Numbered from the stretch's first letter, positions 9,117-13,098 are shown. The stretch: DNA of 16,649 nucleotides from Nannocystineae bacterium (GCA_007133195.1 SLNH01000154.1:1-16649); one strand, 5' to 3'. The notes: generated from the sequence alone by a model not told the origin. A program made the numbers and translations.

Positions 9117-10691
9117 CTAGGGGGGCACGAGCTCGAGCCGTCCCTTCCTGGTGGCTTCCTTGCGGAACTGCTCGATCTGATAGAGGAACAGCTCGGCGAT
9201 CTCGGGGTCGAACTGCGTTCCGCTGCATCGTTCGATCTCGCCGATCGCCATCTCGTGAGGCAGCGCGCGCCTGTAGGCGCGATCGCTCGTCATGGCGTCA
9301 TAGGCGTCGGCGATGGCGATGATCCGCCCCATGAGCGGGATGCCCTGCTTTTCGAGCCCGCGCGGGTAGCCCGCGCCGTCGAAGCCTTCGTGGTGACACC
9401 ACGCGGCGTCTACCAGGTGTCGCATGCACGGGATCGGCTCGAGAATCCGCTTCCCCTTCTCGGGGTGCTCCCGGAACTGCTGGATCTCGTCGGGGGAGAG
9501 CTTGCCGGGCTTGTTCAGCATGTCGTGCCGAATGCCGATTTTGCCGATGTCGTGCATGAGCCCGGCTTGAATGATCGCTTTGACCTCGCCGTCGGGGAGC
9601 CGAAGGCCGCGGGCGATGAGCTCGGCGTACATCGCCACCCGCTCGCTGTGCCCGCGCGTGTAGACGTCGGACTCCTCGAGCGCCTGCGCGAAGCCCACGA
9701 TGGTCTGCTTGAAGTTCTCCTCGAGGCTGCGGTTGGCCTCGCTGAGCGCCTCGTTCTTGGACACGAGGTCGTCGTAAAGGCGCGCGTTCTCGATGGAGGT
9801 GGCGGCCCGGGAGGCCAGGATCGACAGCGTCTTGCGCTTGCCCTCGTCGAACTTCTTGCCGCGCGTGAACGAGTACACGTTGAGCATGCCGATCACGCGC
9901 GCCGCGATCTGGAGGGGGACCGCTGCGTACGACACGAGCGGGCGGTCCCCGCTCGGCGAGGTGAAAAATCGATTGGCCTTGATGCCGTGGGCGAGGATCG
10001 AGGAGCCGCGCTCGAAGTGGGAGATGAGCTCTTCAACGTCGGGCGAGGGGAGCTTGCTGTCGCGGATTGGGCGGGACAGCTCGCTCACGGCCTTGACCCG
10101 CTCCTCGTAGCGCCCCGTCTTCGGGTCCTTGAGGTGGAGCGACGCAACGTCTGCGTCTACCTCGTCGAGCGCCGCGCGGAGGATCACGTCGAGGATCCGG
10201 TCGAGATCCACCGTGTTCGCGATGGCCTCCGAGACGCGGTAGAGCGTGAGCGCTTCTCTGAGTTTGACGTTCTCGGTTTGGAGCCGCTGCTTTTCCAGCC
10301 CGCGCTTGACGATGTGGATGACCTCTTCGACCTTGAAGGGCTTGAGGATGTAATCGTAGGCGCCCTTCTTCATCGCCTCGATGGCCGTCTCCACGGTGCC
10401 GAAGCCGGTCATGATGACGGTGACGACGCTGAGGTTTTCCCGCCCGAGCGCCTCCAGGAGCTCGAGCCCCGAGATGCCCGGCATCTTGAGGTCCGAGATC
10501 ACCATGTCGTAGGGCCGAATCCTCAGCTCCGTGAGCGCCCGCTCTCCGTCCTCGACGCTGCGGACGACGAAGCCCTCCATGGTCAGGAACTCGGCGAGGA
10601 TGTCCCGGATCACCTTCTCGTCGTCGACCACGAGGATGCGGGCCGATTCGGTGTGTTCGTCGGCGAGGGCTTCGGTTCCGTCGTCCAGCAT
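9117..10691 (-). CDS. Response regulator with REC-GAF-HD-GYP architecture (predicted c-di-GMP phosphodiesterase)
   Basis: The REC domain carries all conserved residues (VVDDE, MVISDLKMPG, VIMTGF, ILKPF), followed by a central GAF-like region. The HD-GYP domain has HSERVAMYAEL...GLMHDIGK...HHEGFDGAGYPRGL, i.e. the canonical HD and HHExxDGxGYP motifs. Start is assigned to ATG at 10691 (MLDDGTEALADEHTESARILVVDDE), with GGAGG 6 nt upstream. The track ORF extends 32 codons further without homology support. Confidence 0.9.
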   Translation of the reverse strand: MLDDGTEALADEHTESARILVVDDEKVIRDILAEFLTMEGFVVRSVEDGERALTELRIRPYDMVISDLKMPGISGLELLEALGRENLSVVTVIMTGFGTVETAIEAMKKGAYDYILKPFKVEEVIHIVKRGLEKQRLQTENVKLREALTLYRVSEAIANTVDLDRILDVILRAALDEVDADVASLHLKDPKTGRYEERVKAVSELSRPIRDSKLPSPDVEELISHFERGSSILAHGIKANRFFTSPSGDRPLVSYAAVPLQIAARVIGMLNVYSFTRGKKFDEGKRKTLSILASRAATSIENARLYDDLVSKNEALSEANRSLEENFKQTIVGFAQALEESDVYTRGHSERVAMYAELIARGLRLPDGEVKAIIQAGLMHDIGKIGIRHDMLNKPGKLSPDEIQQFREHPEKGKRILEPIPCMRHLVDAAWCHHEGFDGAGYPRGLEKQGIPLMGRIIAIADAYDAMTSDRAYRRALPHEMAIGEIERCSGTQFDPEIAELFLYQIEQFRKEATRKGRLELVPP

Positions 10692-10714
10692 CGCGACCTC
10701 CGGTGCGCGGGCGC

Positions 10715-11434
10715 TCAGCGCGCGCTCGTTTCGTCGCCCCCGTCCTCGCTCGCCCCGGGGTGGGTGCGCCTCACGAGGTTCTCCCAATTGTCGCGCATGT
10801 CCTCGGCCTGCCGCCGCGCCGAGCGCGCGGCCGACTCGGCCTCTTTGGCGAGGCGGGCACGGGTACGGGCCTGCTCCTCGTAGGCAGCGTAGTCGAACCC
10901 CTCGGGGCGGATTCCGTGCGCCTCCGCGACGCGGGCCTTGGCGTACTCGTAGCGCGCTTGCTGCGCGTAGGCCGACTCCGCCCTGAAGATGTAGTAGGCC
11001 TCGAGCGCTTCCTGGTGGCGCTCGACGTACTCGACCCGCGCCTCCGCCGCGCGGAGCGCCAGCTCGGCGGCGTCGAGGTTGATGGTGGCCTGCTCGATGC
11101 GGTTTTGGTCGCTCGAGCGGTCGGCGGCCTCCATCTCCGATTGCGCGGACGACGCCTGAAGCGCGGCCTGCTCACGCTCGTTCTTCGCCACCCGCAAGGT
11201 GGTCTCCACGTCCTCGAGTTGCGTCTCGGCGTTGGCCCGCTCCATGACGGCCGCGGCGTAGTCGCTTTGCGCATCCAGGACCGCCCGCTTATCGGCCGTG
11301 GACACGCGGGCGATGTGTCGGTCGTCGAACTCGTAGTCGAGCGGCTCCGGGGCGTTCGAGGAACTACCGCCACAGGCGGCGAGCGCCCAGGCGACCGCGG
11401 AGGCCGCGAGCAACGTCTTGGTTGTCGTGCGCAT
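10715..11434 (-). CDS. Coiled-coil lipoprotein, function unknown
   Basis: N-terminus MRTTTKTLLAASAVAWALAACGGSSS is a signal peptide with lipobox LAAC. The remainder is Ala/Glu/Arg/Gln-rich heptad-like sequence. GGAG lies ~11 nt upstream. It sits 20 nt downstream of the membrane-protein gene and 23 nt upstream of the HD-GYP regulator gene. Confidence 0.7.
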   Translation of the reverse strand: MRTTTKTLLAASAVAWALAACGGSSSNAPEPLDYEFDDRHIARVSTADKRAVLDAQSDYAAAVMERANAETQLEDVETTLRVAKNEREQAALQASSAQSEMEAADRSSDQNRIEQATINLDAAELALRAAEARVEYVERHQEALEAYYIFRAESAYAQQARYEYAKARVAEAHGIRPEGFDYAAYEEQARTRARLAKEAESAARSARRQAEDMRDNWENLVRRTHPGASEDGGDETSAR

Positions 11435-11454
11435 CGTCTAACGAGCTCCTATGT

Positions 11455-13098
11455 TTAGGTGAGATTGGGGTCGGCGTCTCCGGCTCCCGCTCCACCGCCG
11501 GGACCCGACGAGGTCGGCACCGCCAGTGAGCCGAGCTCGCCGCCCAGCTCGGAAAACCAGCCGAAAAACGTCGGTAGCATCGCTTTGCGATCGGGATCGA
11601 GATAGTCAAAGTTTCCGCCGCGGTCGGAGATCTCCCAGAACTCCTCGTTCTCGACGGCGGCGAGCTCATCCCGGATGGATCGCAGCCGCTCGGCGCGCTC
11701 GTCGGCCATGTCGTGCCAGATCCGGCGCGCCATCTCGATCTCTCCCTGCTTGAGGTAGTAGGTCGCCAGCTTGATTTGTGCCTTCCGTACCCCGCGCAAG
11801 CTCGCCTCTTGGATCTCGCCTTCGGTCACCGACGGATCGACCTCCAAAAACAGGTCTACGAGCTCCGACTCTGCGGCTGAGCGAATGGCATGGGCGGTTT
11901 CGCACATAGCGCCCAGGTCATAGGCGACGGTCTCCGTGATGAAGGCGAGCTTCTTCGCGTAACTCAAGTGTCCATAGTACTTGATGTGAGCCGCGATTTT
12001 CAGGGCGGTTTCTCCGTCGCCGAACTCGAGCGCTGCCTCGCCCATAATGCGATATTGGTTGAGAATGGTATAGGCGGTGCGGACGTCGCTGCGATTCAGA
12101 GTCGCCCGCAGGTAGGTGTTGAAGAACTTGATGGAGAGGCTGAGGGGCTCGGGCAGACGCGCCTGTAGGGCGCGCCGCGCGATGGCGCAGGTGTTGATGG
12201 CGACGATGTAGTTGATGTCGCGCATGCCGGCGAGGGCCTCGGTGTAAATGGACTGGTACTGGCGCAAAATCTTGAACTCGAGCCACGCCTCCCCGCGCTC
12301 GAGCCGCGTGAGGGAGCTATCGGCCATCGACGAAAAGTCGGGGTTGACCGCGACGGCCTCGCTGACGCGATACCAGTCGCTACCGCTCGGGGGCCTGTGC
12401 TCGAAGTAGGAGAAGGTGAGGTCCCGGAGCGCATCCACGCAGTGCGTGGCGATGATCTTGTCTTTGTTCGTGACCGCGTGGATGGCGATGTCGGTGAGCT
12501 GCTCCGTCCGGTGGAGAAACCGGCGCTGGTGCGCGAGCACGGCGCTCTGGTTGCGGGTGAGGCTCGCCGCGACGGGCTCGCGACGCGCCTCTTCCTCGAT
12601 CCGCGCGACCAGGTTCTCGGGAGCCAGAAACCGGAACACGTAGGCGAAGTAGGGCGCCATCAAGACGAAGCCGACCGTGCCGATGGCGAGCATGGCGATG
12701 AGGCTCACTCTCGGCACCCAGTCGTCGCCCACGGCGAACGCGATCCAAATCGCCTTGACGCCGCCGATGAGATAGAGCGACATCGCGAGCTGGTTCGCCC
12801 GGTCGCGGAAGAACATCTCCGTCACCGCCGGCGTGTAGCGGGTGGCGGTTAGCTGAACGATAATCGAGACGACCGTGACGATGATCCCCAAGATCGCCGC
12901 GATCGTCGTGGCGACCTGGCCGATCGATTCGGAGACGACCCCGTCGTCGAAGCTCAGATAGTTGACGAGCGGATTCGGGAACCCCGCGTCGTCCAGGTAG
13001 TGATCGATGGAGAACAGCGCCGCGAGCAGCCCCATGGCGATGGCTGACAGAACGAGCATCGGCGCGAGCCAGTCGCGGCGGCGGGTGAGGGCCGGCAT
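11455..13098 (-). CDS. Uncharacterised polytopic membrane protein (4 N-terminal TM helices plus ~370-aa cytoplasmic alpha-helical domain)
   Basis: 547 aa. TM segments: WLAPMLVLSAIAMGLLAALFSI, IGQVATTIAAILGIIVTVVSIIVQL, LAMSLYLIGGVKAIWIAFAV, VSLIAMLAIGTVGFVLMAPYFAYVF. It is first in an apparent three-gene operon. The coding assignment rests on ORF length, high third-position GC and operon context. No family is confidently recognised; it may belong to a DUF-type predicted-membrane-protein family. Confidence 0.7.
   Translation of the reverse strand: MPALTRRRDWLAPMLVLSAIAMGLLAALFSIDHYLDDAGFPNPLVNYLSFDDGVVSESIGQVATTIAAILGIIVTVVSIIVQLTATRYTPAVTEMFFRDRANQLAMSLYLIGGVKAIWIAFAVGDDWVPRVSLIAMLAIGTVGFVLMAPYFAYVFRFLAPENLVARIEEEARREPVAASLTRNQSAVLAHQRRFLHRTEQLTDIAIHAVTNKDKIIATHCVDALRDLTFSYFEHRPPSGSDWYRVSEAVAVNPDFSSMADSSLTRLERGEAWLEFKILRQYQSIYTEALAGMRDINYIVAINTCAIARRALQARLPEPLSLSIKFFNTYLRATLNRSDVRTAYTILNQYRIMGEAALEFGDGETALKIAAHIKYYGHLSYAKKLAFITETVAYDLGAMCETAHAIRSAAESELVDLFLEVDPSVTEGEIQEASLRGVRKAQIKLATYYLKQGEIEMARRIWHDMADERAERLRSIRDELAAVENEEFWEISDRGGNFDYLDPDRKAMLPTFFGWFSELGGELGSLAVPTSSGPGGGAGAGDADPNLT

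Follow-up and report, generated by a model that had tools for sequence, protein, structure and literature searches.

A modular Polyangia gene cassette with a REC-GAF-HD-GYP response regulator, a DUF2254-type membrane protein and a coiled-coil lipoprotein

Response regulators of the RpfG family, such as RpfG of Xanthomonas and PA4781 and PA4108 of Pseudomonas, consist of an N-terminal receiver and a C-terminal HD-GYP phosphodiesterase, and an adjacent gene for the cognate kinase, as in the RpfC/RpfG arrangement, is typical but not obligatory. HD-GYP proteins are the less understood class of the enzymes that degrade cyclic di-GMP (c-di-GMP), with few inputs or partners known. RcsF-IgaA-RcsCDB and NlpE-CpxAR are stress relays that run from an outer-membrane lipoprotein to an inner-membrane protein. 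In this study, we analyzed a cassette of three genes, A, B and C, on a contig of 16,649 nucleotides (nt) from a metagenome-assembled genome (MAG) of a Nannocystineae bacterium (GCA_007133195.1, SLNH01000154.1:1-16649); the complete contig, whose G+C content is ~68%, is referred to as the window. Gene C encodes a new member of the known RpfG-type regulators, while its pairing with a DUF2254-type inner-membrane protein (A) and a lipoprotein of a new family (B) is uncharacterised. The only substantive literature on DUF2254 that we found concerns knots predicted in a survey of AlphaFold models (PMC11184937), and the family is otherwise mentioned in passing; the cassette is the first contextual clue that we found for a DUF2254-type protein. 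On balance, we consider it probable that this is a conserved Polyangia cassette in which C is a c-di-GMP phosphodiesterase controlled by a distal kinase and A and B are co-expressed accessory envelope proteins.

Cassette layout and the response regulator

Genes A (547 amino acids [aa]; 11455-13098), B (239 aa; 10715-11434) and C (524 aa; 9117-10691) follow each other on the minus strand and are separated by spacers of 20 nt (A-B, 11435-11454) and 23 nt (B-C, 10692-10714). Direct reading of the spacers places AGGAG ahead of the start of B, with no terminator-like site between A and B, and GGAGG ahead of the start of C, and a consensus scan yielded nothing above shuffle expectation that resembled a terminator or a promoter in the spacers. 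The three genes are very probably co-transcribed. The divergent intergenic region of 85 nt between A and coaX (13099-13183) is presumed to hold the cassette promoter, although a scan of it for the sigma-70 consensus gave no match; an Rfam scan of the window revealed no riboswitch or other RNA. For C, the ATG at 10691 was chosen as the start codon, as GGAGG lies 8 nt upstream and the orthologue alignments start near residues 9-18, and a longer open reading frame (ORF) from a TTG codon (to 10787) was set aside. All three are real genes rather than chance ORFs, given that each has database homologues: 2660 for A among 8000 scored candidates, 7761 for C and, for B, a small family that is conserved. 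Homologues are labelled Kofleriaceae, Haliangiales and Polyangia. The G+C content falls to 62-65% over 11500-13000, within gene A, compared with 68-73% across most of the window.

Protein C matches the Pfam models Response_reg (E-value 1.7e-29), GAF_2 (1.1e-12) and HD_5 (2.5e-34). Its receiver (residues 18-131; 10299-10640, minus strand) is similar to that of NtrC1 (1zy2; E-value 2e-26) and possesses DD23-24, D67, T95 and K117, and is followed by the GAF domain (residues 162-302; 9786-10208) and by the HD-GYP domain (residues 336-499; 9195-9686), which contains HDIGK and CHHEGFDGAGYP and in which H348, H380-D381, H409, H433-H434-E435, the GYP motif, D462 and R470-x-x-R473 are all found. Among 38 orthologues (56-73% identity) taken from each of the gene contexts of C (A-B-C, A-C and B-C), the receiver residues are at least 95% conserved and the HD-GYP metal ligands, GYP and R470-x-x-R473 are invariant or nearly so, while conservation is lowest in the GAF domain. 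C is 70% identical to a protein of Haliangium ochraceum, and its orthologues are labelled by JGI as 'response regulator RpfG family c-di-GMP phosphodiesterase'. It shares the N-terminal receiver and C-terminal HD-GYP phosphodiesterase with RpfG, PA4781 and PA4108, but differs from them in the GAF domain inserted between the two, in its NtrC1-like receiver, in the lack of an adjacent RpfC-like kinase gene and in its upstream partners, a DUF2254-type membrane protein and a lipoprotein.

The closest proteins of solved structure to the HD-GYP domain are V-cGAP3 of Vibrio cholerae (5z7c; E-value 1.6e-40), PmGH of Persephonella marina (4mcw; 2.3e-33) and PA4781 (4r8z; 6e-24). The same His/Asp ligands, GYP and RxxK/R are found in C, PmGH and V-cGAP3, and the alignment with PmGH (residues 255-509 of C) reaches the end of the preceding GAF-like domain; unlike C, PmGH has no receiver, and V-cGAP3, whose HD-GYP modules are in tandem, degrades cGAMP. 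The glutamate E185 of PmGH is reportedly the ligand of a third metal. A Tyr of C (in Y-T-R-G-H348) aligns with this residue, so that C does not conform to the trinuclear-iron type of PmGH and its metal centre is suggested to be binuclear. R470-A-Y-R473 of C aligns with R314-x-x-K317 of PmGH and thus conforms to RxxK/R, the guanine-recognition motif of HD-GYP proteins that prefer c-di-GMP, whereas cGAMP-specific enzymes of the PmxA type carry RxxQ/N and the substitution Q518R turns PmxA to c-di-GMP preference (preprint 10.1101/600031). Judged from these residues, C is a canonical HD-GYP protein that most likely hydrolyses c-di-GMP.

No histidine kinase gene was found in the window by Pfam scans of its other large genes, and none with HisKA or HATPase_c was found within 6-10 kb of the cassette in the related loci L002-L005, L086, L106 and L108; in L107, an unrelated kinase gene lies ~5 kb from the cassette. 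C thus departs from the arrangement in which the cognate kinase is encoded next door. The missing nearby kinase is ordinary, because orphans make up 34-43% of the two-component genes in a tabulation of myxobacterial genomes (PMC4603909, Table 2), and, given that the phospho-acceptor set of the receiver is invariant, C is most likely phosphorylated by a kinase encoded elsewhere. These results bear out much of an earlier reading of the sequence, hereafter the first-pass annotation: all three ORFs were found on the minus strand with gaps of 20 and 23 nt; their description as an operon agrees with the tiny gaps, the ribosome-binding site before each downstream gene and the lack of terminator or promoter consensus between the genes; the Pfam matches, structure alignments and orthologue conservation agree with an intact receiver, a GAF domain and a catalytically canonical HD-GYP domain; and neither the operon nor the window encodes a histidine kinase. 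From the last point it had derived two options, a distal phosphodonor or an unconventional input module made of A and B; the first is favoured by the invariant receiver and the commonness of orphans, while the second is possible but gained no support.

The membrane protein and the lipoprotein

Residues 10-175 of A match DUF2254 (PF10011) with 51.7 bits, above the Pfam gathering threshold of 28.8, though the match spans only profile positions 5-167 of 368 and not the whole profile. The same family appears in the precomputed annotation of nearly all listed A homologues, a few truncated entries being the exceptions, and NCBI names the A orthologues 'DUF2254 family protein'. What A shares with DUF2254 is the N-terminal module of four transmembrane (TM) segments (residues 1-155; 12634-13098, minus strand), which is predicted to have both termini in the cytoplasm by hydropathy, positive-inside charges and AlphaFold2 helices. 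The hydropathy peaks lie at residues 11-29, 62-80, 105-123 and 131-149, and the successive loops carry 3, 0, 3, 1 and 5 Lys and Arg residues, which fits this topology; an acidic loop of 30 aa (residues 32-61, with six Asp/Glu and no Lys/Arg) and a loop of 8 aa are predicted to be exposed to the periplasm. The TM2-loop motif GII.TVVSI.VQL.A.RY...T.MFFRD is highly conserved.

A differs from the Pfam model by a C-terminal domain of 370 residues that lies outside it. In the AlphaFold2 model, which was built with 26 family members and has a predicted local distance difference test (pLDDT) score of 82 and a predicted TM-score of 0.77, the TM bundle is followed by an all-helical region (residues 160-525; 11524-12621, minus strand), most of which has pLDDT > 90. 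Its antiparallel helix pairs are stacked as a solenoid, so that the predicted fold is HEAT/ARM-like, resembles protein-binding scaffolds and is cytoplasmic by the positive-inside rule; a search of the PDB sequences with the A family profile returned no match.

An exhaustive HMMER search with this C-terminal domain yielded 742 representatives at E-values up to 1e-3, among which are eukaryotic homologues from EukProt, including Fabomonas tropica transcripts and a Mastigamoeba balamuthi protein of 943 aa. The A-like proteins of interest (P0246-P0252, P0394 and P0348; locus L109:5001-16112) include giants of 2.9-3.8 thousand residues, one of which is encoded on a contig with genes for a UCH ubiquitin hydrolase and an ankyrin-DnaJ protein as neighbours. 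By the full-length A profile, P0246, P0248, P0249, P0250 and P0252 each consist of five complete tandem units of four TM segments plus solenoid, except that part of the first unit of P0246 is absent, and these concatemers show the same partial match to PF10011 as A does. That five full units are joined in the protist giants suggests that the single-unit bacterial A assembles as a homopentamer, and provides an independent lead on the quaternary structure of its family; a channel-like role of A is speculation. The existence of protist homologues also suggests that the core function of A is independent of B and C.

B begins with a signal peptide and the lipobox LAAC (11372-11434, minus strand), which conforms to [LVI][ASTVI][GAS]C and whose Cys21 is invariant in an alignment of 19 members, followed by a disordered Gly/Ser tether of ~25 aa. 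In its predicted structure (pLDDT 83, and < 50 at residues 15-29), the tether leads into long helices at residues 46-105, 110-172 and 182-224 that form a three-helix coiled coil. Conserved motifs of the family include Y..DD..IA, K..V..AQN, SGDMNR and EARYE.EKAKLA..KNI.P.GF. Searches of Pfam, NCBIfam and PADLOC assigned B to no family and returned only scattered sub-threshold coiled-coil noise; a reading of the locus as a defence system was dropped, as PADLOC gave only generic HD/REC matches, to C. The first-pass annotation had rightly described A as a four-TM protein with a large cytoplasmic helical domain, as the hydrophobic segments, the charges and the solenoid model indicate, and B as a LAAC coiled-coil lipoprotein. 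Its statement that neither belongs to a nameable family is correct for B, which has neither a Pfam nor an NCBIfam match, but not for A; the profile and structure-prediction searches that it proposed placed A in DUF2254 with a predicted HEAT-like solenoid and gave B a predicted three-helix coiled coil and no family.

At one other locus (L103:3479-5660), a B paralogue of 30% identity begins 8 nt before the stop codon of an ORF that looks Omp85/BamA-like by eye only. This paralogue is far from any A or C gene, and the B family is therefore broader than the cassette and may have a link to the outer membrane.

Conservation of the cassette and its possible function

An A-centred genome scan found at least 597 loci, all in MAGs or isolates of the Myxococcota type, and the best 80 were kept and, together with five look-up loci, classified with tblastn and a hidden Markov model (HMM) of the B family. 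C lies downstream of A on the same strand in 30 loci and is inverted nearby in one, no C was found within 2.5-8 kb in 39, and the flank is too short to judge in 15; thus, C follows A on its strand in 30/70 informative loci. Where B is found in the A-centred loci, it is only directly downstream of A, and the B HMM detected it in 0/39 A-alone loci. About 10 A-C loci have a gap of 24-215 nt or an overlap that leaves no room for B, and in L006 and L011 the A-C gap is 850-1135 nt without an intact B ORF, where a decayed B and assembly indels are indistinguishable. In a neighbour-joining tree of A, the A-alone loci approximately form one large clade, labelled mostly Polyangiaceae and Sandaracinaceae, in which the linkage to coaX is lost as well, while nearly all A lineages outside it carry A-C or A-B-C.

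A B-centred metagenome scan with an alignment of nine members found 18 loci, in which C follows B wherever the flank allows, except for two paralogues of 30% identity (L103 and L104, the latter with a Pro-rich tail); in L096 and in the genome locus L015, C is ~4 kb downstream rather than adjacent. Three B-centred loci have coaX directly upstream of B and no A, and the same is found in four long contigs whose C is 67-70% identical to that of the window, including the Haliangium ochraceum protein (coaX followed by B-C, with A absent in 4/4). B-C is the form present in Haliangium ochraceum DSM 14365. The spacing in relatives is mostly -8 to +37 nt between A and B and mostly 4-124 nt between B and C. 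C is the best conserved (56-87% identity), followed by A (~43-62%) and B (25-54%). The cassette is therefore modular: A-B-C, A-C, B-C and A alone are all found, with C as its constant element. The three-gene conservation on which the first-pass annotation had staked its proposal is thus real but not strict: the neighbourhood is found again in many lineages of Polyangia whose A has only 43-62% identity, yet B is missing from at least 10 A-C loci, A from all four of the Haliangium type, and 36-39 loci have A alone.

The genes after C vary (abhydrolase, MFS and gyrA; STAS; GGDEF; or, in the window, an encapsulin block). In Haliangium-type loci, the gene after C lies on the same strand and encodes a GGDEF diguanylate cyclase (L108:7596-8711) or a small STAS-domain protein (L086:9830-10174; L107:7616-7966). 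The rearranged locus L063 (7860-14706) has, after A and B, a membrane ORF judged MscS-like by eye only, and its C is inverted ~3.5 kb downstream. Two apparent fusions were rejected. The N-terminal 270 residues of P0216 (787 aa), a candidate B-C fusion, are Arg-rich out-of-frame junk from a mis-called start, and an ORF of 761 aa that spans both A and B of locus L063 is an artefact of an alternative frame, B having a start of its own.

Drawing on what the analysis showed of the genes and their domains, conserved residues and modular synteny, and on the predicted folds, we propose that a distal histidine kinase would phosphorylate the receiver of C, which would in turn control the HD-GYP phosphodiesterase through the GAF-containing linker. 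The cytoplasmic solenoid of A, perhaps as an oligomer, is a plausible docking platform that may dock or tune C, and the periplasm would contain B as a tethered lipoprotein with a three-helix coiled coil. The most likely role of A in the loci that have it, and of B via the short periplasmic loop of A, would be to localise or tune the phosphodiesterase at the membrane, or else to act in the same envelope-related response as C. In either case A and B would not replace the kinase. A functional association of the three proteins has moderate support, and the cassette provides a testable handle on how an HD-GYP protein may be localised or tuned at the membrane.

Several points weigh against this proposal. 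Co-transcription, the substrate of C, the A-C and A-B contacts and the physiological output are things that we infer; the distal kinase is postulated; and the best structural match of the HD-GYP domain is V-cGAP3, a 3'3'-cGAMP phosphodiesterase. Some lineages dispense with A and some with B, and A, which stands alone in a large clade and is also present in protists, has for that reason a function of its own, while no neighbour is common to more than 9/36 loci of the A-alone clade. Moreover, synteny extends equally to coaX in most linked loci and, further away, to gyrA in many. The kept gene order is therefore no special feature of the trio, and vertical inheritance could account for much of the A-B-C linkage, part of which may be plain synteny.

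Taken to its end, the last point would mean that the three genes share no function and simply sit in an inherited order, from MiaB through redoxin-coaX and A-B-C to gyrA, which we regard as unlikely. The 379-aa unknown and the redoxin gene of the coaX cluster are as syntenic as the trio, and with coaX and gyrA accompany it in most linked loci; every pairwise combination of losses is tolerated, A functions alone in the mostly-Polyangiaceae clade and in eukaryotes, and B paralogues occur in unrelated contexts (L103 and L104). However, the start/stop overlaps and the distances of -8 to about +40 nt between genes imply units of co-translation rather than mere nearness, the linkage is kept down to ~43% identity in A while the downstream genes vary, and B is never away from A in the A-centred loci and adjoins C in the B-centred ones, the two distant paralogues excepted. 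If the linkage were synteny only, the gain would be limited to better annotation: one new family of lipoproteins, and a subfamily of DUF2254 that has a HEAT-like domain. The opposite extreme, in which A and B form an unconventional trans-envelope sensor in the style of RcsF-IgaA or NlpE-CpxA that feeds C and replaces or overrides the kinase, appears rather improbable. By analogy, the proposed logic would be the same, a periplasmic lipoprotein, a polytopic inner-membrane protein and a response regulator as output, and it would agree with the tight same-strand linkage in many lineages, with the adjacency of B and C in nearly all B-centred loci, with the way in which A joins periplasm-facing loops to a large cytoplasmic domain of the protein-binding type and with the lack of a kinase within 6-10 kb in the window or most relatives. 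The invariant phospho-acceptors of the receiver would nevertheless be unexpected if phosphorylation were bypassed, A exposes only ~38 residues to the periplasm and has no sizeable periplasmic domain, B is unlike RcsF or NlpE, and there is no relation in sequence or fold that would place the cassette in the relay family; in addition, its output would be a nucleotide phosphodiesterase and not a transcription factor, and orphan regulators are routine in myxobacteria. Either A or B can also be absent: A-C loci without B occur, and in B-C loci without A the periplasmic B has no route to the cytoplasmic C, for which reason an obligatory relay from B to A to C is unlikely.

A more elaborate idea, quite doubtful in our estimate, is a new trans-envelope module in which B, tethered to the outer membrane, contacts the acidic loop of A, A forms an oligomer that may be a pentamer and resemble a channel, its HEAT-like ring binds C, and the state of the envelope gates c-di-GMP hydrolysis; were it true, the five-unit concatemers of protists would be the sign of an old family of membrane machines that are pentameric and as yet uncharacterised. 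The identity of the substrate is a separate axis, on which it seems very unlikely that C is a 3'3'-cGAMP or dual-specificity phosphodiesterase and the cassette part of cGAMP signalling. The resemblance of the HD-GYP domain to V-cGAP3, a class III nucleotide cyclase gene in the window (5248-6648) and the HD-GYP eraser PmxA of the Myxococcus cGAMP system (preprint 10.1101/600031) would fit such a role, but R470-A-Y-R473 of C is invariant in the orthologues where PmxA-type enzymes have RxxQ/N, V-cGAP1, with Arg at the same position, resembles PmxA Q518R in selectivity (preprint 10.1101/600031), and a GGDEF gene follows C in L108.

Other genes of the window

The remaining genes of the window, the large ones of which were scanned with Pfam, encode GyrA, a DUF255 thioredoxin-like protein, the class III cyclase, a nitronate monooxygenase, an EncFtn protein, an encapsulin, CoaX, a 379-aa protein with no Pfam or NCBIfam match and a TlpA-like redoxin. 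The EncFtn-like cargo (PF22277) and family-1 encapsulin (PF04454; E-value 1.6e-81) genes overlap by 4 nt on the plus strand (7868-9048), and the pair converges on gene C. They are part of a block of ~6 kb between C and gyrA (about 3090-9048) that also holds the DUF255, class III cyclase and nitronate monooxygenase genes; in related loci, the block is absent and its place between C and gyrA is taken by abhydrolase and MFS genes.

On the other side of the cassette, coaX (type III pantothenate kinase) and the genes for the 379-aa protein and the membrane-anchored TlpA-like redoxin are divergent from it on the plus strand (13184-16387), and the redoxin and 379-aa genes overlap by 8 nt. Most loci that show a linkage of C to A or B have this conserved cluster beside the cassette, and the genes that come after it in relatives are Fam20C-like, HEAT_2, MFS and radical-SAM (UPF0004/TRAM, MiaB-type) genes.

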